Shown in pieces: positions 242 through 13,844 of a stretch of 16,143 nt of DNA. Position 1 is the first letter of the stretch. Each line of letters opens with the position of its first letter. The stretch spans positions 64,001 through 80,143 of IMG/VR virus record IMGVR_UViG_3300005095_000172. One strand, given 5' to 3'. The notes under the pieces were generated by a model. The model did no database searches and was not told the origin of the DNA. It saw nothing but the letters and a program-made list of their open reading frames with translations. The DNA comes from a virus. Lineage: Duplodnaviria; Heunggongvirae; Uroviricota; Caudoviricetes. The position numbers and the translations under genes were made by a program.

Positions 242-778
242 TTATTTAACACCAAGGTCTTCTTTAATCATTTCATAAATTACATCCCATGTACAGTATG
301 GGTATTTATCACTTGGTGAGTTTAAGGAAGTTTTGATTTGAAAGACATTTACTCCTTCTTCGTACATTTCGTCACAATATCGCCTATAATCATCGACGAA
401 ATAATCACATTTCACGAACCGCTTATCAGCAGTAGAAATAAATCCTTCCATGTAAGGGAAATTTCTTCTAAGGAAGAATTTCTTAGAAGATTCGTGTTCG
501 GGCATACAAGCAGAAACAAATACTACTTTTACCCCTAAGTCATGAATTTTTTCAATGAAATACAATGCTGGCTCTAAAGCCATTAGATCGTCATAAAGTT
601 TAGGGTCTCTCCAAAATTTCAATGGGTCATCGTGTCTTTTCATAAGAGTTTCGAGATCATTATTCTCTGAGCTAATTTCCCCTATATCATGACCAGTAAG
701 TTTATGGTACCAATCTTTCCAAGGAGACACTGTATCAACTACTGTTAAATCGACATCTATCGCTATAATTTTTTCCAT
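242..778 (-). CDS. HAD-superfamily 5'(3')-deoxyribonucleotidase (NT5C-like)
   Basis: N-terminal [11 protein letters not shown] (DxDxT motif I), FVSA (motif II), K and FVDD (motifs III/IV); 178 aa; AAGGAA RBS upstream. Confidence 0.8.
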
Positions 779-838: not shown

Positions 839-876
839 GTTACGATTTTTCGTAACTATCACCTATAAATCGTAAC
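839..876. repeat. Inverted repeats: 10-bp perfect arms 839-848/867-876 and a nested 7-bp hairpin 839-845/850-856; possible terminator or operator
   Basis: GTTACGATTT (839-848) is the exact reverse complement of AAATCGTAAC (867-876). TTTTTCGTAACTATC occurs at 846-860 and again at 921-935. Confidence 0.6.
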
Positions 877-1532
877 TATTCGAAGAGCTTAGTATTATCC
901 TCATTACCATCTTCATCATATTTTTCGTAACTATCTTCACTTTCAGTGTAACCACCTTCCACTCTTTCGTGATTCAATTTATTCTTTTTCATATACAAAT
1001 CATACATTTCATTTGGCTCCATTTCCGCATAATGACAAAGTGCATTGATAAGGAACATAAACATATTCAAAGACTCTTCTTTTTCAGTTTGAAGTATAGA
1101 AAGAGCAAATACTGATGTAGAAGCAATCAAGTCAAAACTAACTCCGCCAGAAACTTCTTCGTTAATAATTTCTTCACCTGATTCTTTATAACTCGTAGAA
1201 CAAGCGTTATAGTCTGTCATCAAAGCATTTAAGTCTTTATTGTACTTCACTATCAATGAGCTTAATGTAAAGTGAATCATATCTACTGCTTCAACTTTAT
1301 TGTTATTTTCATCATTTTCAAGGTATGGTTTCCACCATTTCCAACCAGTTTCTGTGTCACCAGTTCTTGGGGAACTTTCTAGTAATTCCCCTAATTCGGC
1401 AAAAAACGCACTCAAAAGGTGAGATTGTGGAATTTTTTCAGCCCAATCTTCACCAGAATATTTTACATTAAGTTCAGCTTGAGCCTGAACAATCTCGTTA
1501 AAATCATCAATTTCCATTATCTTAAAACTCAT
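876..1532 (-). CDS. All-alpha dimeric dUTPase/dCTPase (dUTPase_2 family)
   Basis: AELGELLES, WKWWK, VEAVDMIHF and YMKKNKLNHER..GY motifs of dimeric all-alpha dUTPases. Start revised from 1580 to the ATG at 1532 (AGGAGA at 1537-1542), which removes the overlap with the upstream gene. Confidence 0.88.
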   Translation of the reverse strand: MSFKIMEIDDFNEIVQAQAELNVKYSGEDWAEKIPQSHLLSAFFAELGELLESSPRTGDTETGWKWWKPYLENDENNNKVEAVDMIHFTLSSLIVKYNKDLNALMTDYNACSTSYKESGEEIINEEVSGGVSFDLIASTSVFALSILQTEKEESLNMFMFLINALCHYAEMEPNEMYDLYMKKNKLNHERVEGGYTESEDSYEKYDEDGNEDNTKLFE

Positions 1533-1554
1533 TTGATCTCCTATTTTAATTATT

Positions 1555-2550
1555 TTATCCTTTATACCACTTTGGTTCATTACCTTCTAAAGGACTCCCA
1601 ACAAACATTTCGGTCATGTCCTCTACATTAGAAACATCCCATTTGGAAATATCTTTACTGAATGATGAACCATAGAACATATAACTCATGTCAATCACAT
1701 TAGAAACGTCCCACTTAGAAATATCTTTATTGAACTTCGATTCGCTAAACATTTCATTCATATCCTTTACATTAGAAACGTCCCACTTAGATATATCTCC
1801 GTTGAACTTCGATTTACTAAATGTATAAACCATGATCTCTACTTTAGATACATTCCATTTAGAAATATCTCCGTTGAATTCAGAGTTGTTGAACATTCCA
1901 CTTATATCTTTTACTTTAGATACATTCCATTTAGAAATATCTCCGTTGAATTCAGAGTTGTTGAACATATCAAACATCTTCTCTACTTTGGATACATTCC
2001 ATTTAGAAATATCTCCGTTGAAAGATGAGTCATAAAACATAAAGCTCATATCCTCTACATTAGAAACGTCCCATTTAGAAATATCTCCGTTGAACTTCGT
2101 TTCTCTAAACAAGCTATTCATATCCTTAACTTTAGAAACATCAATGTCATTCAAGTCTGCTTTATTCCCTCTTTCATCTATCAAATCTACGATAATAGAC
2201 ATAAGTTCTTTACTATTATTAGGAAAGTAACTATATACTTGAGCAGGCTTAAGTTTCTTAGGAGAAGATACTTTTCTACCTAAGAACTTTTGTACTCCTG
2301 TTCCTTTTAGTTCTTTAATGGAATTTAATTTCTTGTCTACTTCATAAAACTCTCCGTCTTCTTTAAATCCAATTAAATACCCTTCTCTATTCCATATCAA
2401 AGTAATGTTATCATATTCTACTTCTAGAATATCTCCATCTGTTACGATGTTCATTTTCTTGGAATTAAGAGATTTCTTTACCATTCTCAAGTGTTTGTTT
2501 GCTTGAGAACCATTCTTCACTTCATTTATTAATTCTCTAATACCTTTCAT
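1555..2550 (-). CDS. DUF285/BspA-like repeat protein with a distinct ~110-aa N-terminal region
   Basis: Seven 24-aa repeats of consensus FNGDISKW(D/N)VS(N/K)VxxMxxMFxxSx, preceded by the cap DLNDIDVSKVKDMNSLF; GGAGA RBS. Confidence 0.88.
   Translation of the reverse strand: MKGIRELINEVKNGSQANKHLRMVKKSLNSKKMNIVTDGDILEVEYDNITLIWNREGYLIGFKEDGEFYEVDKKLNSIKELKGTGVQKFLGRKVSSPKKLKPAQVYSYFPNNSKELMSIIVDLIDERGNKADLNDIDVSKVKDMNSLFRETKFNGDISKWDVSNVEDMSFMFYDSSFNGDISKWNVSKVEKMFDMFNNSEFNGDISKWNVSKVKDISGMFNNSEFNGDISKWNVSKVEIMVYTFSKSKFNGDISKWDVSNVKDMNEMFSESKFNKDISKWDVSNVIDMSYMFYGSSFSKDISKWDVSNVEDMTEMFVGSPLEGNEPKWYKG
1600..2140. repeat. 72-bp-period tandem coding repeat (about 7 units)
   Basis: A 57-bp block is identical at 1840-1896 and 1912-1968, with a near-identical partial copy from 1984. 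The motif ccatttagaaatatctccgttgaa recurs at 72-bp intervals. Confidence 0.92.
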
Positions 2551-2590: not shown

Positions 2591-3121
2591 TCACCCACAA
2601 GCACACATCGCTCCATCTAATCCGTTACAACTTCTACAACAAGTACAACCAGAACAAGACGAACAACTAACACAAGCACTACATCCTGAACAAGCGTTAC
2701 AACCAATACAAGCATTACAAGATGAACAAGAACCACTACACGCAGTGCAAGAAGTACAAGAGTGACAATCATCACAAGATGAACAAGAAGAGCAATCTGT
2801 GCAAGTACCTGAACTCACACAAGAACTACAAGCGACACAAGAACTTAACTCACTACAATTATCTTCACAAGAAACACAATTCCTACAAGAAAAACAATCG
2901 TGGCAATCATTACAAGACACACAATCAGCGCAATTTATACACCCTATACATGAATCGCAATTATCGCACCTATGGCAATTGAAACAATTAGTACAACCTT
3001 GTAAATCAACACTAGAAAGAGTTAAGTTATTCTCATCTAAAAATTGTTGAGTTACACCATTTTCTCCTGAAGAAGCGTTCTCTTTAAAATCATCATAATC
3101 TTCAAATAAACTTACTGACAT
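2591..3121 (-). CDS. Cys-rich CxxC-repeat protein with acidic N-terminal segment; function unknown
   Basis: About 42 Cys in 176 aa by hand count, mostly every third residue. First ~42 aa are Cys-free and acidic. AGGAGA RBS 5 nt before ATG. Confidence 0.85.
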   Translation of the reverse strand: MSVSLFEDYDDFKENASSGENGVTQQFLDENNLTLSSVDLQGCTNCFNCHRCDNCDSCIGCINCADCVSCNDCHDCFSCRNCVSCEDNCSELSSCVACSSCVSSGTCTDCSSCSSCDDCHSCTSCTACSGSCSSCNACIGCNACSGCSACVSCSSCSGCTCCRSCNGLDGAMCACG

Positions 3122-3237: not shown

Positions 3238-3627
3238 CTAAAATTCATCTTCTTTCAACCATCTAAATAAGACATAATTAAAGACAAAAAGTTCTTTTCC
3301 GAGTTTTTTGGCTATGTCCATAGAATGTTTTGTTCCGTTTGAATCTCCGTCCCAAATAGATAGAACAATATTTGAGTCTTCTACAATTTGTCTATTTCTG
3401 ATGAACGCTGCTGGTCTTCCGAATTTTTCCCAATTCGGTTTATGAATTATAGTTTGAATTCCCTTAACTTTAGCATAATGCTCAGCCATAGTATCCACAC
3501 CTTTAGCCCCTCCGGAAATAATTAAATCTATTTGCTTCCCAATAAGAAATTTACCCATGATTTCAGTAAATAACTCATAATCATCGAAACTTCTACTTCC
3601 AACAATAGCTAATTTATAACCATCCAT
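3238..3627 (-). CDS. SLOG-superfamily protein (DUF2493/YspA-related)
   Basis: LAIVGSRSF, IISGGAKGVDTMA, NW.KFG..A..IRN..IV and WDG.S.GT..S motifs. Confidence 0.85.
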   Translation of the reverse strand: MDGYKLAIVGSRSFDDYELFTEIMGKFLIGKQIDLIISGGAKGVDTMAEHYAKVKGIQTIIHKPNWEKFGRPAAFIRNRQIVEDSNIVLSIWDGDSNGTKHSMDIAKKLGKELFVFNYVLFRWLKEDEF

Positions 3628-3645: not shown

Positions 3646-4818
3646 TTATAGCCATTCACTAATAGAACACTCATTATCACAAACTTCAGGTTCTTCAGTC
3701 GGAACATATCTATTTCTTGGTCTTCCTGTACCACGTCTAGCTGAAGTATATTTACCAAGTTCACAGAAACTATTTTCACACATCATCACATTTAGACATC
3801 TATCATATTCTGGTAGATGGTCAAATAGTTCATTGAAATCAACGCTAAGTCCTCTTTTATCCCATTCTTTTTCAATGTTGTCTCTTACCCAGAATAGAGC
3901 TTCTTCATAATTCATACCATCTTTATCGTCAAATAATAGGTCAAGCCCTCTATCACATCCTGGTCCAGAAACAGTGAATTCGTTTTCACTAAACTTATAT
4001 TCTGGGATATAAGTTAAGTCCACGAAAACTTGATATGCTAAGAACTTAGAAAATCCAGGAATTTCCTTCAATATTTCGTATGCTTCTTCTTGAGAAGAAG
4101 TTGATGAGACTCTTTGATGGATATTATTATCTCTTGCCCATTTAACTAATTCGAGCATCCTCATTCTCATATCATATTCATAGTCCTTTATTTTCCAATC
4201 AGGATTTTCCTTAATGAATTCCTTTGCTTCTTTCAGTTTCATTTTCTTTATTTCTTCAGAATTATAAACTTCCACCTCTATTTCAGAACTGGTACACTCA
4301 TAGTATCGTTGTTTAGGGAAACACCAAGTTGCTCTGATACCTCCTGTATTGAATGCAGGAGTGAACCATACAAACTTAGGGTCTTTTTCATTTTCTTCCT
4401 TTATAATTTCTCTTATTTTTTCCATATCTTCTTTGGTAAAATTTAAGATATCAAAATCACCAGGAAAATTCAATTTCTCTAAAGTTTTCGATTTATTAAA
4501 GGTTCTAAATAAAATACTCCATAAAACCTTTTCTTCTAAAGTAAGATTAGGATTTTCACTAACATTCTTAATCAACCACTTAGACTCTCTGTCTAATTCT
4601 CTTCTAACATTCGTGAATCTGTAGTTTTTGAATACTTCATCTTCAGTCCATTCTTCTTGTGGGAGCTTATAAATCTCCTTTCTTTTATAGATATTATGTC
4701 TCTCGTATATATACTGCCTATGGTATCTAAGAACTTCTTCATTTAAAGTCGGATTCGCATTCTTTATCTTATCTTCATCAACACCACAATAAGGTATGTC
4801 ATCTGGTTTTGTTTTCAT
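3646..4818 (-). CDS. DNA base hypermodification protein, aGPT-Pplase1 / HMUDK_hel (5-hmdU DNA kinase helical domain) family
   Basis: YIYERHNIY..K.....EWTEDEVF..YRFTNVRRELDRES, LFRTFN, FLAYQVFVDLTY, GPGC.RGL and ENSFCE..KY match my recollection of this HhH-glycosylase-fold family. No Walker A motif visible. Confidence 0.8.
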   Translation of the reverse strand: MKTKPDDIPYCGVDEDKIKNANPTLNEEVLRYHRQYIYERHNIYKRKEIYKLPQEEWTEDEVFKNYRFTNVRRELDRESKWLIKNVSENPNLTLEEKVLWSILFRTFNKSKTLEKLNFPGDFDILNFTKEDMEKIREIIKEENEKDPKFVWFTPAFNTGGIRATWCFPKQRYYECTSSEIEVEVYNSEEIKKMKLKEAKEFIKENPDWKIKDYEYDMRMRMLELVKWARDNNIHQRVSSTSSQEEAYEILKEIPGFSKFLAYQVFVDLTYIPEYKFSENEFTVSGPGCDRGLDLLFDDKDGMNYEEALFWVRDNIEKEWDKRGLSVDFNELFDHLPEYDRCLNVMMCENSFCELGKYTSARRGTGRPRNRYVPTEEPEVCDNECSISEWL

Positions 4819-4819
4819 T

Positions 4820-5338
4820 TTATACCCCTAATAATCTAAATTTATTCAGTAATCTAATAAGAATTCTATCTTTTTGAGAGATGATGAAGCTTTCTAGTTC
4901 TTCTTTTAAAAGGAAGATTTCTTTCTCATCCTTTGTTTCAAGGTGATACCCATAATCTCTTTCTGAAATTTTACCGTTTCTGAGCAACTCTGCTGTCCTA
5001 TAAACCTTTTTCGGAATAACTACAGCGACACTTGTTCTGATTCCAGCTAATGTTTCATCGTCTTCCGTAAAATCAGCCCAAGGATAGTCACAAATTTCAT
5101 CTAAAGTTTCTACAATTTCTTGAAGACTTTTAGAATTTCCTCCGTCAAGAGCAATGTGCGTTTTATGGTCTCTTGTCCAATCAGATAACATTAGGAACTT
5201 CTTTACTTCTGAGATGGGAACTGATTCTGGTAGCTTCGGGTCTCCATACTTCACAAATAGTTCAGTAGTTGCGTGTCCTGATTGAATCCCCTTAGCAATA
5301 GGGGATAGCATCGTGTGAGTGAATGTATATAATCTCAT
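4820..5338 (-). CDS. Conserved phage protein, probable peptidyl-tRNA hydrolase II (PTH2)-like fold
   Basis: GIQSGHA (cf. AAQxxHA), W...HKTHIAL (cf. W...KIVL) and FTED....G..TSVAV resemble the PTH2-like pattern. ATGA overlap with fcl. Confidence 0.5.
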   Translation of the reverse strand: MRLYTFTHTMLSPIAKGIQSGHATTELFVKYGDPKLPESVPISEVKKFLMLSDWTRDHKTHIALDGGNSKSLQEIVETLDEICDYPWADFTEDDETLAGIRTSVAVVIPKKVYRTAELLRNGKISERDYGYHLETKDEKEIFLLKEELESFIISQKDRILIRLLNKFRLLGV

Positions 5339-6273
5339 CTATTTTCCTTGTATCTTACTTCATAAATTTTACTTATACCTGAATATAAGTCCGTTTTAGC
5401 TTCCCAACCAAGAGATTTCAATACTGAATAATCAGTTGTTTTAATAGGAGTCCCGTTAGGCTTACTTGTATCGAAAATGATATCTCCTTTATAATTAAAA
5501 ATCCCTTTAACCATTTCAGCCAACTCTTTAATTGAAATTGAGAATTTACTACCTACATTCATGAAAGACACCACTTGATTTCTATCAACTTCTTCCATAA
5601 CAAATAAACACGCTTCAGCTAAATCATCTACGAATAAAAATTCTCTTATTGGACTACCGTCTCCCCAAAGAGTTACTGAGTCTTGATTAAGTTTCTTAGC
5701 TAAATGAACCTTCTCCATGATCGCAGGTAACACATGAGAAGTTTCTAAATCAAAATTATCATTTAATCCGTATAGGTTAGTCGGCATAAGTGAAATGAAG
5801 TTGTCACCGAATTGTCTATATAATGAGTCACACATTTCTAACCCAGCTATTTTTGCAATGGCATATGGTTTATTTGTTTCTTCTAATTCTGAAGTGAGTA
5901 AATGTTCTTCCTTCATCGGTTGAGGAGAATATTTAGGGTATACACAAGTGCTCCCCAAAAATAGAAGTTTCTTAACAGAATTCTGATGGCTATAATTGAT
6001 CACATTACTTTCTATCATAAGATTTTCATAGATAAAATCATATGGGTAAGAATTGTTGGCCACTATACCGCCAACCTTAGCGGCAGCAAGGAATACATAT
6101 TCAGGTTTCTCTCTTTCAAAAAACTCTTGCACAGCTCTTTGGTCAGTTAAATCTAAATCTTCTCTATCTTTTAAGATTAAGTTATTATAACCATTTTTTA
6201 TTAAAGTTCGCTTAATAGCTTCTCCGACTAACCCGTTATGTCCTGCTACAAAAATTCTACTATCTTTTTTCAT
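5335..6273 (-). CDS. fcl: GDP-L-fucose synthase (GDP-4-keto-6-deoxy-D-mannose 3,5-epimerase/4-reductase)
   Basis: VAGHNGLVG, AAAKVGGI.AN, FLGSTCVYPK, PYAIAK (YxxxK), PTNLYG.NDNF, SHVLPA and WGDGSP.REFL.VDDLA motifs. Confidence 0.96.
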   Translation of the reverse strand: MKKDSRIFVAGHNGLVGEAIKRTLIKNGYNNLILKDREDLDLTDQRAVQEFFEREKPEYVFLAAAKVGGIVANNSYPYDFIYENLMIESNVINYSHQNSVKKLLFLGSTCVYPKYSPQPMKEEHLLTSELEETNKPYAIAKIAGLEMCDSLYRQFGDNFISLMPTNLYGLNDNFDLETSHVLPAIMEKVHLAKKLNQDSVTLWGDGSPIREFLFVDDLAEACLFVMEEVDRNQVVSFMNVGSKFSISIKELAEMVKGIFNYKGDIIFDTSKPNGTPIKTTDYSVLKSLGWEAKTDLYSGISKIYEVRYKENR

Positions 6274-7280
6274 AAATAATCCTTTAATACCATTTCACTG
6301 ACTAACTGTTTAAATGAAAATTCTGGTTTCCATCCTAATTCATTTCTAGCTTTCGTTGAATCCCCAAGAAGTTGTTCAACTTCAGTTGGTCTGAAATATT
6401 CCCTATTCACAGAAATGACCTTTCTTCCCACATCAAAATTTCTATCACTCGAAGATTTCACTACTCCAATTTCATCAACGCCACTTCCAGTAAATTCAAG
6501 TTCTATACCGATTACCCTAAATGCCTCTTGGATAAATTCCCTCACTGAATGAAATTCCCCTGAACTAGCCACATAATCATCTGGTTCATCTTGTTGTAAA
6601 ATCAACCACATCATTCTTATATAGTCTTTAGCGTGACCCCAGTCCCTTTTAGCATCCAAATTACCAAGTTCTAAAATAAAATTTTTATCATCCTTCATTC
6701 TTTTTATTCCTTTGGTAATTTTCCTAGTAACAAATTCTTCTCCCCTTTTTGGTGATTCATGGTTGAAAAGAATTCCATTACAAGCAAAAATCCCATAAGC
6801 TTCCCTAAAATTCACTACTGACCAAAATGCGTGTAGCTTAGAAACAGCATATGGGCTTCTTGGATAAAATGGTGTGGTTTCACTTTGAGGAATTTCTTGG
6901 ACTAATCCAAAAAGTTCTGAAGTCGACGCTTGGTAAAATTTACTATCCAATTCCAAGAACCTGATTGCCTCTAAGAAATGAACGACCGATTTAGCATTTG
7001 TATCTACCACCAAACTTGGGACAGAAAAACTATTCTTTACATTCGTGATGGCAGCTAAGTTATAGATTTCGTGTGGTCTTACTTCATTCAAGACTGAAAC
7101 AACAGACTGATAATCTGTAATATCCCCATAATGAAATTTAACATTAAATTCCTTGATGTCTCCCAAATCTCTTGGAGACATCCTTATAAATCCATGAACT
7201 TCATACCCTAATTTATAAAGGTATTCTGTTAAATAATAACCGTCCTGGCCAGTAATTCCTGTTATCAGTGCTCTTTTCAT
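6270..7280 (-). CDS. gmd: GDP-mannose 4,6-dehydratase
   Basis: ALITGITGQDGYYL, YQASTSELFG, FYPRSPYAVSK, GILFNHESP.RG..FVTRKIT and LGNLDAKRDWGHAKDY motifs. Confidence 0.97.
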   Translation of the reverse strand: MKRALITGITGQDGYYLTEYLYKLGYEVHGFIRMSPRDLGDIKEFNVKFHYGDITDYQSVVSVLNEVRPHEIYNLAAITNVKNSFSVPSLVVDTNAKSVVHFLEAIRFLELDSKFYQASTSELFGLVQEIPQSETTPFYPRSPYAVSKLHAFWSVVNFREAYGIFACNGILFNHESPKRGEEFVTRKITKGIKRMKDDKNFILELGNLDAKRDWGHAKDYIRMMWLILQQDEPDDYVASSGEFHSVREFIQEAFRVIGIELEFTGSGVDEIGVVKSSSDRNFDVGRKVISVNREYFRPTEVEQLLGDSTKARNELGWKPEFSFKQLVSEMVLKDYL

Positions 7281-8356
7281 CGAACTCTCCCATAAATGTC
7301 AGAATATCTAATAATGTCTTCTTCTATAAGCTTATCACCTATTTGAATTTCTACTATTTTCACTTCTTCGTTTGTTCTATTTTCAATTGAATGTTTTTCG
7401 TTAATTTCTATCAATACTTCCTCATTCTCTCTTACAGAGAAAGTTTTATTTCCCTTAGTCACAAAAACTTCTCCGTTAATGATAATCCAATATTCCTTCC
7501 TGAAATTATGAGACTGAAGTGAAAGTTTTCCATTTGGGTTTATGGTGATAAGTTTTATTTTAAATTTCTTACCAGAATCTAGTACTGAATAATTTCCCCA
7601 AGGTCTTTCAACAACATATTGACTGAGGTTATCTATGAATCTTCTCGTTTCTCCTATATCTTCCCAACTACATTCGAGGTGTTCCACACAAAGAGAAACT
7701 TCTCTTTTTTCGATGAAAGGAGAAATGTAGTTATCGAAACTTATATCCTTTATATCAGAATTGTCTAATAAGACTACTCCTTCTTCTAAATCAATCTCGT
7801 TTAATTCATAATCCAAAATAAGCTTTTCTTTTATTCTTCCTCTTATAGAATATATCCCAGAATTCCACAACCACCCATTTTGAATTAATTCACTTGCTAA
7901 TTCTACATTTGGTTTCTCCATGAATTCTTTTGTTTCTTTATTCAAATACCCGTATCCTGTATTCGGGAATAATGGTTCCACTCCATGTAAAGTTATATCA
8001 CAGTTAGAAATTTCTAACTTATTACAATCAACTAAATGGTCTGAAGGAAGAAAGTTTACTAAATCATAAGAAGCCTTAGAAAGTATATAAATGAATTGAG
8101 TAAGTGTATTTCTTTTGAATTTTTCTACTATAATCTTCTTTACATTAATGTCTAAATCACTAATCTGTTCCTTAACAATTTCTAGATATTTTTCATTCGT
8201 GAAGACAAAAATATCACCTGATGCTCTATTAAGAGCATTTTGGAATGTTGATAGTCCTTCAAAGCATCTTATGAATTGCTTAGGGTATTCTGGATCACCT
8301 ATATTCATTCTAGTTCCAGAACCACCAGCCATAATTACGGTTGCAACATTTTCCAC
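7277..8356 (-). CDS. manC: Mannose-1-phosphate guanylyltransferase / mannose-6-phosphate isomerase (compact, diverged)
   Basis: VIMAGGSGTR, PKQF, GYGY, FMEKP, WNSG and WEDIG, plus a C-terminal cupin (ERPWG, LSLQSH..R.E.W). GTG start with AGGAG RBS. Confidence 0.88.
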   Translation of the reverse strand: MENVATVIMAGGSGTRMNIGDPEYPKQFIRCFEGLSTFQNALNRASGDIFVFTNEKYLEIVKEQISDLDINVKKIIVEKFKRNTLTQFIYILSKASYDLVNFLPSDHLVDCNKLEISNCDITLHGVEPLFPNTGYGYLNKETKEFMEKPNVELASELIQNGWLWNSGIYSIRGRIKEKLILDYELNEIDLEEGVVLLDNSDIKDISFDNYISPFIEKREVSLCVEHLECSWEDIGETRRFIDNLSQYVVERPWGNYSVLDSGKKFKIKLITINPNGKLSLQSHNFRKEYWIIINGEVFVTKGNKTFSVRENEEVLIEINEKHSIENRTNEEVKIVEIQIGDKLIEEDIIRYSDIYGRVR

Positions 8357-10045
8357 CTAAATCTCCTGGATAGCTTCTTTAAACCAAAGTGGGAATAAAT
8401 CTTTATTTAACAACCGTTCAAAATTGGTATCTGGTATAAAGAATTCACACCAATCATCTTCATGTCTAACTCCACGACCGTAACTTTGGGTAAGTTTATT
8501 TGCCGCTTCCTTTACATACCATCTAGGATAAAGTTCAGCTTTCTTTCTTACATAGACATCTCCTAATGAAGCATATTGGACTTTAGTAAGTATTTGAAAT
8601 CTGGCTAAATCGTCTTTAAAATCATACCCTTCAAATACACTTGGGCTAAGTAACACATAATCTTCTTTAGAATTGATGAAGTCATCAATAGTAAAATCAT
8701 CCGTTGGGATTTTCAATCTTCCATTCCTGACCCTCTTAGCAATTTCATATGCGTAATGGTAACTTGATGTATGGATAATTCCCTTATTTCCTCTATTCTT
8801 GGAGAGAATTTCAGTAATGAAAGAAGATATAGTATCAAGTGAATTTTCTTGGTTGTTATATGAAAAGTTTACTAAAGGGATATAGTAAATTGGTCTATTT
8901 TCCTTCTTGAAAACTCCTTCTAAGGAAAGGACTTCGCATTCGTTTTCATCTAATCCCAATTCTTTCATATAGACTTTCATGTCACCAACAGTAGCCGACA
9001 TATGTAAGTGGAAATCTGCTTTCTTTAATAGGATATGATTAGCACTCGAACTCGCGAAAACAGGAGTTATTTTCACTACTCCGTCCTCATTTTCTTCAAA
9101 AACAAATTTGGAACCAATACAAGAATTAGTCACTGAATTGAATTTGTTATAGAGATTATTTAGATATTCTGTCAATCTATAAAAACTGTCTGGAATTTTC
9201 ACATTTGATTCATCTATTTCTATACCAAATTCTTTCATAGAAGAAAGTGATTTTTTTAACTTAGTTTCTTTCGCTTTATCTAAATTTTCTATTGCCAAAA
9301 ATAAACCAGAACTTATATTTTCACTTAAATCCATCAATTTATCGTTTAAAATAACAAGTTCATTTTCAACGGAAGCTTTCAAAGAAGACTTGAACTGAAG
9401 AATTTCTTCTATTAGAGATTTTATACTAAAATCTATCGGTAGTTCTTCTTTCACCTTTAAAAATGGAGATATGATGTTGTCTCTAATTTCTTTTGTGTCT
9501 AAGGTTAAAGTGCTTCTAGAAATAATTTCTTCTGAAATGTTATGACACTCATCTATCACTGTACAATCTGATTTGAATTCACCATCACAAACAAGTTCAT
9601 CACATTGGCACATAAATGAAAAGTTTGTCATCCTGATAGACGCAGATTCTTTCCAAACTTCTCTTCTCTGAACATAAGGACATTCTCCTTTTGGTCTACA
9701 CCACTTACTTTTTACAAAAACTTCACAAGCAGGTGAACCATAAACTACTCCTTCCCGTTTGATACAAGGATAATTCGTTTTACCTTTTAGGTCAAATACA
9801 TCTTTGAATTCTGAATTATATTGATCTTGAAGAGCTTTTGTCTTAGTGATAATTGTAGTTCGTTTACCATTTTCTTTAAGGTATCTAGCAAATGTGACTG
9901 CTATTCCTGACTTTCCTGTACCAGTAGGTGCTTCAAGGATAAAGTGCTTCTTCCCGTTATTATAAGCGTTTATAATTGCCTCTATTGCGACCTCTTGTTG
10001 AGGTCTTATTTCTGTGTATGGGAATAATTCTTTCCAATGTTTCAT
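8357..10045 (-). CDS. DinG/XPD(Rad3)-family SF2 helicase with a predicted 4Fe-4S cluster
   Basis: Q motif (RPQQ), EAPTGTGKS, C-x12-C-x8-C-x5-C after LKGKTNY, DECH, MSAT, EGYDF and QSYGRGVRH. The ATG at 10045 overlaps the gp43B stop (ATGA); the ORF track uses GTG 10054. Confidence 0.88.
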   Translation of the reverse strand: MKHWKELFPYTEIRPQQEVAIEAIINAYNNGKKHFILEAPTGTGKSGIAVTFARYLKENGKRTTIITKTKALQDQYNSEFKDVFDLKGKTNYPCIKREGVVYGSPACEVFVKSKWCRPKGECPYVQRREVWKESASIRMTNFSFMCQCDELVCDGEFKSDCTVIDECHNISEEIISRSTLTLDTKEIRDNIISPFLKVKEELPIDFSIKSLIEEILQFKSSLKASVENELVILNDKLMDLSENISSGLFLAIENLDKAKETKLKKSLSSMKEFGIEIDESNVKIPDSFYRLTEYLNNLYNKFNSVTNSCIGSKFVFEENEDGVVKITPVFASSSANHILLKKADFHLHMSATVGDMKVYMKELGLDENECEVLSLEGVFKKENRPIYYIPLVNFSYNNQENSLDTISSFITEILSKNRGNKGIIHTSSYHYAYEIAKRVRNGRLKIPTDDFTIDDFINSKEDYVLLSPSVFEGYDFKDDLARFQILTKVQYASLGDVYVRKKAELYPRWYVKEAANKLTQSYGRGVRHEDDWCEFFIPDTNFERLLNKDLFPLWFKEAIQEI

Positions 10046-11214
10046 ATCAACCACTCATCCATTTCAAAATTTTGATCCAATTCATAACCTACCGCTTCTA
10101 ACATAATCTTTAATGGTGAAATGAAGAAATCTTCCCACATTCTTTCTCTGTCTATAAATTTCATTAAACCAGAATCTTCTATGAATTGAGAATCTATAAA
10201 AGCAATCACATCATCGCCTAGAATATTCGGTTTCTTCAAGAAAATGTATTTTATCTTATCAGCATCAGTGATTTTAGGATACTTAGTCAAGCCAGTGTTC
10301 CCTATAAAGTTATTAAAGTTCATAGCGGCACGTACATTCATTGGAGCCGTAAGGGTCTTCCCGTTCTTGAAAGTGGTGTATCTACCAATTTCTCCTTCAT
10401 ACTCTAGAGAACCGATACCACTTACTCTTGCAATATCATCTATTGGTGCTTCCCAAAATAGTTCTTCTATCTCAGTCAATCTTTCAATCGTACTCTTTGC
10501 GTCGTTGTCAAGAATAACTTCTACCATATCCTTTAAGTACTTCCTACAAAATGAAGGTGTACTAGAACGGACAATTTCTAGTCCAGTAACAGCTAGTTTC
10601 GGTTTCTCTAGTAGAATAGAGCCTTCATCCCACACTGCTCTCAAAGCATATTTCTTTTTAGCAACAAATAACCCTTTATCAGCTATTTTTTCCAGTTTAG
10701 CCCCGATTGGATCTTTGTTAAAAGCATTAAATGTATCTGAATATTCTTCAATATATTCCTGTACCCAGACATCAAGATATCTCTTATCGAAATTTATGAG
10801 TTTATCTAGAATAACTTTTTTATCCTGTTCATTAAATTTTTCGACCAATTTCCCCAAAGTAAAATATACCGAATCAGTATCCCCATACACTACAAAGTCG
10901 AAGTTTTCAACCTTCAGTACTTTCTTAAGTTTATCGTTTATGAAGTTAGCTAACCCTTGAATAAAAATCCTTCCATTCCCAGTAATAGAAGCAGCAACAT
11001 CCCTATTAAAAAGGAGAAAATGTACATTGGCAAGTGCTCCATAAAGAGAGTTGATTGAAATTTTTAGAGCCATTTGGTATGTATTGTAATATGCAGAACG
11101 GCTTTCTATGTGAGATGTGTCGGAACCAGAAAGGTGAGAAAGGTCCATATTGTTTATTTCATCGATGGTCATAGAACCATCTTCTATTTTTTCGTAAATT
11201 TCTTCTAGTGTCAT
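10042..11214 (-). CDS. Family B DNA polymerase, C-terminal subunit (gp43B-like: second finger helix, palm, thumb)
   Basis: KISINSLYG (motif B), YGDTDS (motif C), KKKYA and GLEIVRSSTP. It has its own GGAG RBS and promoter. Confidence 0.95.
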   Translation of the reverse strand: MTLEEIYEKIEDGSMTIDEINNMDLSHLSGSDTSHIESRSAYYNTYQMALKISINSLYGALANVHFLLFNRDVAASITGNGRIFIQGLANFINDKLKKVLKVENFDFVVYGDTDSVYFTLGKLVEKFNEQDKKVILDKLINFDKRYLDVWVQEYIEEYSDTFNAFNKDPIGAKLEKIADKGLFVAKKKYALRAVWDEGSILLEKPKLAVTGLEIVRSSTPSFCRKYLKDMVEVILDNDAKSTIERLTEIEELFWEAPIDDIARVSGIGSLEYEGEIGRYTTFKNGKTLTAPMNVRAAMNFNNFIGNTGLTKYPKITDADKIKYIFLKKPNILGDDVIAFIDSQFIEDSGLMKFIDRERMWEDFFISPLKIMLEAVGYELDQNFEMDEWLI

Positions 11215-12225: not shown

Positions 12226-12292
12226 TTTTAAGCCTTTCTAACTTAGTTTGATATACTATATCATACTGTAACTTAGCTTAAACATTGCTTAA
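12223..12292 (-). promoter_or_regulatory. Promoter/RBS/start-codon cassette, copy 2, with the full upstream periodic motif
   Basis: Minus strand TTAAG-N6-TTAAG-N11-TATGAT...AGAAAGGCTTAAAAATG. Confidence 0.8.
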
Positions 12293-12329
12293 ATTTAATT
12301 TCCTTAAAAATTCTCTTTCTCGGGAGAAA

Positions 12330-13844
12330 CTATTGGATTTTAGCCTTTAGTGCGTTATACATCAACATCTTTCGCTTTGCTTCCTTCCTTGTGCTATAAA
12401 TATCAGCAACAATAGAAGGGATAATCCCCTCGTGGTCTCTTTTAAAGAAAGCATTCATACCAAACGCTACATCATATTTCTGACACACTTCCTTAATTTC
12501 ATCCAAAGTTTCCTTTTCAAGGTACACAGATTCATCTTCATGGGTATGATACTTAGCTCTAAGGGTTTTGAGTTCCTCTGGGAGTTCATACTCATTGATA
12601 TAAGTTTCAGGTGACATATTGAATGCCCTCATTCCTAGAAGAGGATACATACTGTTTACGTCGATAGAAACTAACCAATCGTGTTTTCCTTTTTTAGGGT
12701 GTCTAACATAACCACCAACAATAGTTTTGTCTAGGTGAGACTTCCTATCAAAAGGCATAACCAACGTCTCTTCTAAAGCAAGGTTAGTTAGGTATTGTCC
12801 CCAAGGCTTAACTGTACCAAAAGTGTCTTCGAGGTTAATGCCCATCATTTCAGAAAGGATTTTCATAAGCTCTATAAGCTTGAGTTTTTCTTCAAGGTCT
12901 TTAAGAATGATAACGTCTTGAATAGAGTATTCTAAGAATTTATCTATATCCCCGTGATAGAAGTCTATGATATCATCAAATTCCCCGTAATCAACCTTTC
13001 CGCTCCCAACTCCAAGTTCTTCCTTAGCGATATTATCCAATGAATAAGATGCTTGTGGCGTAAAAATGAATTTCTTATAAGCCTTCATCATATCCACAAG
13101 ATATATTCCTTCCCAAGAATAGTTCAGTCCATCTTTTGTCTTAATTTCAGAAACCTTATGGATTGGAGACAATCTTCTGTAGTTCACCCCTTGAATTTGC
13201 ATAGCTCTATGTGTAATATAAGGAAAGTCGAAGTAATCACCGTTCCAAGCAGTAATTACAGTCGGTTTTAATCCTTCTAATAACTTAAAGAAATCTAAGA
13301 ATAAATCCTTTTCGGTCTCATAGTGTTTAAATACTAGATTATTGTATTTCTTGAACCTTTCTTCGTCTTTCATTTTATCCAAACTAAGTAAAATGACCTT
13401 TTTAGAGTAAGAATCATAAATTTGAATTTGAGAAACTGGCTTAGAAGCTACTTGTGGGTCTGGGAATGATTTATCATTCTGGTCTTGCCCCATAGTTTCT
13501 ATATCGAGAAACCAAATCCTAATATCTGAAGTCTTTCCTTTTTTAAAGAAGTGTTTTCTGATATGGTTATATTCTGGATTTTGCCCACCGAACACTTCCT
13601 TTCCTATGGAGTCCATTAGTCCTCTGTATTCCTTAGCTTGTTTAGAATTCGTAAAGGACTTCTTTGACAATTTCGTAGAAGGGTCAAGTATGAATGAAAA
13701 CTCCCCTTGTGGGTTCTTTTCGTAATATTCCCACTCAGGTTCAAATTTTTCTATTCTTACTTGGTTTGTTTCTATATTCCTTGTTCTACAAAAATATTCA
13801 TATCCACTTCTCCAAACCATTTCATATTGTTCATTCTCATACAT
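12330..13844 (-). CDS. Family B DNA polymerase, N-terminal subunit (gp43A-like: 3'-5' exonuclease, motif A, first finger helix)
   Basis: ExoI FLDIET, ExoII WNGDYFDFPY, ExoIII YSIQDV and motif A SIDVNSMYP. It ends GIIPSIVADIYSTRKEAKRKM...KIQ with a TAG stop. GGAGG RBS. Confidence 0.95.
   Translation of the reverse strand: MYENEQYEMVWRSGYEYFCRTRNIETNQVRIEKFEPEWEYYEKNPQGEFSFILDPSTKLSKKSFTNSKQAKEYRGLMDSIGKEVFGGQNPEYNHIRKHFFKKGKTSDIRIWFLDIETMGQDQNDKSFPDPQVASKPVSQIQIYDSYSKKVILLSLDKMKDEERFKKYNNLVFKHYETEKDLFLDFFKLLEGLKPTVITAWNGDYFDFPYITHRAMQIQGVNYRRLSPIHKVSEIKTKDGLNYSWEGIYLVDMMKAYKKFIFTPQASYSLDNIAKEELGVGSGKVDYGEFDDIIDFYHGDIDKFLEYSIQDVIILKDLEEKLKLIELMKILSEMMGINLEDTFGTVKPWGQYLTNLALEETLVMPFDRKSHLDKTIVGGYVRHPKKGKHDWLVSIDVNSMYPLLGMRAFNMSPETYINEYELPEELKTLRAKYHTHEDESVYLEKETLDEIKEVCQKYDVAFGMNAFFKRDHEGIIPSIVADIYSTRKEAKRKMLMYNALKAKIQ

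Follow-up and report, generated by a model that had tools for sequence, protein, structure and literature searches.

Previously, P-loop kinases were shown to activate 5-hmdU by making 5-PmdU (Lee et al., PMC8989533). Group transfer is the task of the clade 2 aGPT-Pplases, which rely on a Cys and on a metal site formed by Glu/Thr and proceed through an exocyclic methylene. Borohydride reduction of this methylene intermediate yields T (PMC8989533). [quoted passage not shown] ViI, M6, phiW-14 and SH-Ab 15599 are reported to have one hypermodified base each, which is accounted for by clade 2, and the product in SP10 is glutamyl-T. GATase and amidoligase genes were also noted in such clusters, with products that are not known (Lee et al., PMC8989533). 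Finally, studies of SP10 and phiW-14 from around 1979-1981, which we cite through PMC8989533, reported that hydroxymethyluracil is converted to T after replication. In the literature surveyed, no enzyme was assigned to this formation of T from hmU, although the idea may already be in print.

The second branch of the family, clade 1 (PF18723, HMUDK_hel), is represented by gp160 of the Ackermannviridae phage ViI (Vi01_130c, YP_004327501; named aG/PT-PPlase1), a stand-alone protein that has PF18723 only and no P-loop, and whose gene sits ~60 kb from the ViI kinase and transferase genes. M6 gp55 is likewise a stand-alone PF18723 protein without a P-loop, and SP10 gp186 is an HMUD1 kinase fused to a C-terminal PF18723 domain. 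Neither PMC5889632 nor PMC8989533 assigned a reaction to ViI gp160, and the literature surveyed offered none for the clade 1 proteins ViI gp160 and M6 gp55. The tailoring cassettes of the two phages consist of a serine transferase and a PLP decarboxylase in ViI (5-NeOmdU) and include radical SAM and PLP enzymes in M6. The nomenclature varies: in Table 3 of PMC5889632, M6 gp51 is named PPlase1 and gp55 is named PPlase2, Pfam assigns the reverse, and in PMC8989533, too, gp51 is placed in clade 2 (M6 loci L013:8406-9281 and 12261-13232).

We analyzed a clade 1 gene, hereafter the query, in a stretch of 16,143 nucleotides (the window), which corresponds to C1:64001-80143 of a linear virus record of 140,623 bp that is ~79% complete. 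The record is T4-like; its DNA polymerase is split, it encodes 25 tRNAs, and the best matches of its helicase are T4-like phages at ~35% identity. A promoter scan returned a number of sites that was not above chance. The features discussed below are collected in Table 1.

Table 1. Features of the window and of the genome adjoining its left edge (window position 1 is genome position 64001).
Feature	Window position	Genome position	Strand	Remarks
manC	7277-8356		-	GDP-fucose module
gmd	6270-7280		-	GDP-fucose module
fcl	5335-6273		-	GDP-fucose module
PTH2-like gene	4820-5338		-	weak, E 0.019, below cut-off
Query, aGPT-Pplase clade 1 / HMUDK_hel protein	3646-4818		-	intact ORF, 390 aa; ViI gp160 ortholog
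SLOG (YAcAr) protein	3238-3627		-	after query gene in several relatives
Cys-rich repeat protein	2591-3121			176 aa; phrog_15341 only
DUF285 repeat protein	1555-2550
dUTPase_2-fold enzyme	876-1580		-	likely dUTPase/dTTPase of the hmU nucleotide pool; putative dTTPase role
NT5C-type 5'-deoxynucleotidase	242-778		-	last constant gene before variable tailoring cassette
panD, aspartate 1-decarboxylase	1-218 (5' part)	63844-64218	-	TIGR00223, 158 bits, cut-off 106
Class II glutamine amidotransferase (GATase)		63208-63843	same as query
Amino acid:DNA transferase ADDT		62219-63211	same as query	E242-T243-x-x-C246
HMUD2 P-loop 5-hmdU DNA kinase		61529-62206	same as query
Amidoligase		60603-61538	same as query
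dUMP hydroxymethylase-type TS-fold gene		57312-59384 (L001:7313-9385)	same as query	with HNH intein
2OG-Fe(II) oxygenase-like gene		56230-57042 (L001:6231-7043)		no Tet_JBP match

The original prediction, made from the sequence alone, had placed the query in the aGPT-Pplase1/HMUDK_hel family and had noted that it lacks a P-loop, and both points were confirmed. A Pfam profile search matched PF18723 (profile positions 2-274 of 281) to residues 28-360 with an E value of 3.2e-64 and 217 bits, against a cut-off of 25. The protein is 38% identical to gp160 of Salmonella phage ViI over residues 1-370 (E 5e-76), and among proteins of cultured phages it is closest to those of Ackermannviridae (35-40% identity); homologs occur in 363 cultured-phage records, the top one being ~40% identical. 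M6 gp55 and the C-terminal domain of SP10 gp186 are much more distant in sequence. Family scans and structure comparison revealed no P-loop, no kinase family match and no kinase fold. The kinase profiles PF18748 and PF18747 left the query unmatched but did match M6 gp54, ViI gp243 and the HMUD2 gene of the same genome, and PF18724 (ADDT) gave no match to the query at E 0.1. From its sequence, the query is a stand-alone clade 1 aGPT-Pplase, and as such it is an ordinary gene of a known family. The missing P-loop, considered as an unusual trait, was rejected, as ViI gp160 and M6 gp55 also have none. A charged insertion had been proposed at about residues 170-215; residues 168-216 are indeed rich in D/E/K/R (47% versus 36% overall), but the segment is not special, since it is included in the alignment with ViI gp160 and varies from 6 to 65 aa in length across 64 homologs. 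It is modelled as a hairpin and a helix with a pLDDT of 85-97.

The AlphaFold model of the query (pLDDT 93) showed a helical, helix-hairpin-helix (HhH) glycosylase-like fold in structure comparison. The best 25 structural matches listed were DNA glycosylases and their relatives, with Z scores that are middling for a helical protein, yet coherent. The top match was DUF2419, an enzyme of queuine salvage (Z 9.0); the PaMx11 glycine:DNA transferase gp46 (PDB 8Z2M; Z 8.0, rmsd 4.6, 209 residues aligned) and the OGG/AlkA glycosylases (Z 6-8) were also recovered; a PDB sequence search and Foldseek at E 0.001 gave no match. An HhH-like fold is shared with the clade 2 enzymes (M6 gp51, PaMx11 gp46, ViI gp247 and the SH-Ab 15599 DADT), in which the Glu/Cys/Lys motif occupies the same place as in the query. 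This motif, E348-N349-x-x-C352-E353-x-x-K356, is nearly invariant among 64 homologs (E348 in 63, and N349, C352, E353 and K356 in all 64), and its C-E-x-x-K portion is common to ViI gp160, M6 gp55, the C-terminal domain of SP10 gp186 and SH-Ab 15599. In profile comparison it was the only stretch to align with E-T-x-x-C-x-x-K of the transferases, although weakly (probability 2.8%, E 0.016). The query differs from clade 2 in that Asn replaces Thr, the Cys is followed by an additional invariant Glu, and a GPG motif, G285-P286-G287-(C288), is present; this motif is invariant, as are N70, R73 and D76. The true clade 2 gene of this genome is the separate ADDT gene.

The original prediction had described the query as lacking its usual partners. 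This holds within the window only: the kinase, the transferase and the dUMP hydroxymethylase, for which a search of the genome had been recommended, were all found within 7 kb of the left edge of the window, 0.8-6.7 kb past it and on the same strand as the query, and the idea of missing partners was rejected as a window-edge artefact. The ADDT transferase model matches gp46 at an E value of 6e-4, and its E242, T243 and C246 are kept in 38/38 homologs. In the TS-fold gene, the HNH intein is placed just before the catalytic Cys. Because this gene has an active-site motif common to Ackermannviridae enzymes, and because the best matches of an intein-free ortholog are Ackermannviridae enzymes, we infer that it encodes a dUMP hydroxymethylase. 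The genes of the hmU pathway are all encoded, i.e., the dUMP hydroxymethylase, the dUTPase-fold enzyme, a dNMP kinase, the HMUD2 kinase and the transferase. Judging from this gene content, the phage very probably carries hypermodified thymine, in line with the modified pyrimidines predicted originally. A search of the genome record found no second kinase (PF18748), GNAT, GT10/GT11 fucosyltransferase, ThyX, PALP or radical SAM gene, but these negatives are weak, as the record is 79% complete, three of the families were searched without a positive control, and the intein-split gene escaped PF00303. The 2OG-Fe(II) oxygenase-like gene (Table 1) also comes after the hydroxymethylase in several relatives (L004, L007, L173 and L175).

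The cassette next to the kinase differs from that of ViI: it consists of PanD, a GATase, a transferase 25% identical to that of ViI, and an amidoligase. The panD gene, which heads the cassette, is intact and preserves the G|S cleavage motif. It was found in none of the other loci in a set of 165 related transferase loci, being unique to this genome, and it is higher in GC (38%); for both reasons it looks like a recent insertion. No viral relative of it was found, and the panD matches in cultured phages are mostly small unannotated records. The neighbors had been said originally to differ from the decarboxylase and radical SAM partners of characterized clusters; a radical SAM gene was not found in the 79%-complete record, and the PanD decarboxylase begins inside the window, at position 218.

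In relatives, the gene order is polymerase, query gene, (SLOG), dUTPase, NT5C, cassette, kinase and hydroxymethylase, with a cassette of one of two forms. The first has a ViI-like transferase and a PLP enzyme (L003, L004, L173, L175 and L176), and the second has a GATase, a divergent transferase, an amidoligase and often a GNAT (the query genome, L007, L009 and L012). L003 and L007 are sisters for the query gene (85% identical, support 100/99), and their hydroxymethylases are 97% identical over the available 101 residues, but their transferases are just 29% identical. The whole cassette has been exchanged at the same site (L003:14444-16716 versus L007:7354-11080), with a ViI-like transferase and a PLP enzyme in L003, and a GATase, a transferase and a GNAT-kinase-amidoligase fusion ORF in L007. 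Since sister phages with an 85%-identical query gene carry different tailoring cassettes, the query gene does not set the chemistry. The chemistry of the query genome probably does differ from that of ViI and M6, on account of its panD-GATase-transferase-amidoligase cassette and not of the query gene.

If clade 1 proteins make T, they should be found with the hydroxymethylase route and be missing where hmU persists or arises from T through a Tet/JBP dioxygenase, and the distribution of clade 1 fits this expectation. All six hypermodifying phages considered (SP10, M6, ViI, PaMx11, phiW-14 and SH-Ab 15599) have one copy, and SPO1, which keeps its hmU, has none. Among the 165 transferase loci, 82 have Tet_JBP and 10 have a hydroxymethylase; the clade 1 gene was present at 0/82 of the former and 5/10 of the latter, or in 0/32 versus 3/7 clusters at 80% identity, counts that overstate the independent evidence because the loci are interrelated and mostly fragments. 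A complete 162-kb Tet-route genome has neither a clade 1 gene nor a hydroxymethylase. Conversely, a TS-fold gene accompanies the clade 1 gene in 38 of 44 records, and Tet_JBP occurs in none of the 44. As exceptions, two linear contigs (G004 and G007) carry a hydroxymethylase and a transferase without a clade 1 gene.

Other homologs and modules were encountered in this survey. Clade 1 homologs exist in basidiomycete fungi and actinomycetes, and three cellular homologs lack the E-N-x-x-C-E-x-x-K motif. Further homologs lie on contigs, cellular or viral, that were binned as Woesearchaeota, Pacearchaeota, Nanoarchaeota and Methanosarcinales MAGs (L256-L264, L266-L267). Phages of ~50 kb (L181-L217, L236-L253) have a clade 1 protein at 35-45% identity and a divergent TS-fold gene; in these phages a clade 2 transferase often goes undetected. 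A widespread T4-like module (L021-L092, L120-L172) has the order Tet_JBP, GATase, amidoligase, GNAT, transferase and small kinase, and neither a hydroxymethylase nor a clade 1 gene lies in its vicinity. In L249, near 10001-11161, a 67%-identical homolog is present as two ORFs (186 and 204 aa), possibly through a frameshift or an assembly error.

We hypothesized, with moderate confidence and from its distribution across phages, that the clade 1 protein is the constant partner of the dUMP-hydroxymethylase route and converts 5-phosphomethyl-dU in DNA to thymidine. In this scheme, the phage DNA would be replicated with 5-hmdU replacing T, the P-loop kinase would phosphorylate 5-hmdU to 5-PmdU, and the clade 2 transferase would add a donor at some sites, three steps that are established for ViI, M6, phiW-14 and SP10 and for which genes are present here. 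The GATase/amidoligase cassette would tailor the attached donor, and the query protein would handle the sites left over. By analogy with clade 2, Cys352 would add to C6 of 5-PmdU and E348/N349 would hold a metal, so that the phosphate leaves and a C5 exocyclic methylene is formed. This methylene would be reduced instead of being captured by an amine, leaving ordinary thymidine in the DNA. The independence of the query from the cassette, as seen in the sisters L003 and L007, supports T formation. Against the proposal, neither the model nor family scans revealed a nucleotide-cofactor domain that could supply the hydride, and the second Cys (C288), present in 99/114 homologs, is not universal, its place being taken by Ala or Phe in both M6 gp55 and SH-Ab 15599. 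The two linear contigs without a clade 1 gene and the fungal and actinomycete homologs also count against it, as do SP10 and the records with no ADDT match that are discussed below. More tentatively, PF18723 as a whole may be a polymer-level 'thymidylate synthase' that acts through a Cys-bound methylene, here beside a PanD-GATase-transferase-amidoligase cassette that might install a beta-alanine-derived amide on thymine. The interest of the query lies in the reaction of its family, for which the phylogenetic profile names a candidate for polymer-level T formation. If the proposal is true, clade 1 would be an enzyme making thymine within DNA, the Pfam name of PF18723 would be corrected, and a tool to erase or map 5-hmU would be at hand. 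The candidate reaction is testable at once on ViI gp160 or M6 gp55 with an existing assay.

An alternative that we consider possible, albeit rather unlikely, is that the query is a second nucleophile:DNA transferase, with some other amino acid or amine as the group that it adds to 5-PmdU. Its catalytic motif is the same as that of clade 2 and the folds are related. Moreover, SP10 makes glutamyl-T without a clade 2 transferase, so that its only such domain, the clade 1 domain fused to the kinase, may be the transferase that attaches glutamate there. Many gut phages with a clade 1 gene also had no ADDT match (20 of 30 near-complete records, in a search that missed the known case G037). However, ViI, M6, phiW-14 and SH-Ab 15599 all carry clade 1, yet each is reported to have a single hypermodified base that clade 2 explains; the clade 1 gene is retained when the cassette is swapped; and Tet-route loci, which would have just as much use for a transferase, do not carry it.

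The original prediction had assigned the family a part in activating 5-hmdU, and the Pfam name HMUDK_hel, together with fusions to HMUD1 kinase in SP10 gp186, L234 and an Atlas cluster, could suggest that the query is itself a kinase, or that it assists the kinase by binding DNA. We regard this as improbable. Activation is the work of the P-loop kinases (M6 gp54, ViI gp67/gp243; PF18748, PF18747), which belong to the same pathway, but the query has no kinase domain, P-loop or kinase fold. Previous studies showed that the SP10 kinase domain is active without its HMUDK_hel half and that M6 gp55 is dispensable for glycyl-T (PMC8989533). In addition, a helper would not need the invariant Cys motif, and Tet-route loci have kinases without clade 1. 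The Pfam name is misleading, as the kinase activity published so far resides in P-loop proteins or domains and not in PF18723; to judge from SP10 gp186, it derives from fusion to 5-hmdU DNA kinases.

We likewise see little chance that the query has an editing role, acting on leftover 5-PmdU or 5-hmdU by excision or dephosphorylation, with repair synthesis restoring T. DUF2419 and the OGG/AlkA glycosylases are among its closest folds, and the same phylogenetic profile would be expected. On the other hand, depletion of dTTP in these phages (PMC8989533) would leave little for refilling, and the query motif matches the Michael-addition transferases.

The neighbors upstream and downstream of the query are as described originally, namely manC, gmd, fcl, a weak PTH2-like gene and the SLOG gene. 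The manC/gmd/fcl/PTH2-like module (4820-8356) sits between the polymerase region and the query. Different chemistry had been read from these sugar, PTH2-like and SLOG neighbors, a reading that fails: the module is present at 1/104 homolog loci, and a complete 155-kb relative has the query gene but no gmd. The GDP-fucose genes are incidental and not a conserved partner of the query. That the query transfers fucose from GDP-fucose to hmU in DNA is highly improbable, even though manC-gmd-fcl lies directly upstream, tightly packed on one strand and in the same order in one relative (L007), since, apart from the rarity of gmd and fcl and the complete relative without gmd, L003 lacks gmd/fcl at this place despite its 85% identity to L007 in the query gene, the query fold matches the HhH type and not a glycosyltransferase, and the genome offers a likelier GDP-fucose sink. 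A cluster at 103.9-117.3 kb (L002:3914-9548 and 15813-17287), lying among 25 tRNA genes, comprises three GT2 glycosyltransferases and a Stealth-like protein, as well as sulfotransferase-like genes and an APS-kinase/nucleotidyltransferase, and would be a more plausible consumer of GDP-fucose than the query. GT2 was not found in five relatives, so that no link between the cluster and gmd could be drawn. Elsewhere in the window, the Cys-rich repeat protein lies between the SLOG and DUF285 genes, and the DUF285 repeat protein lies just before the dUTPase.
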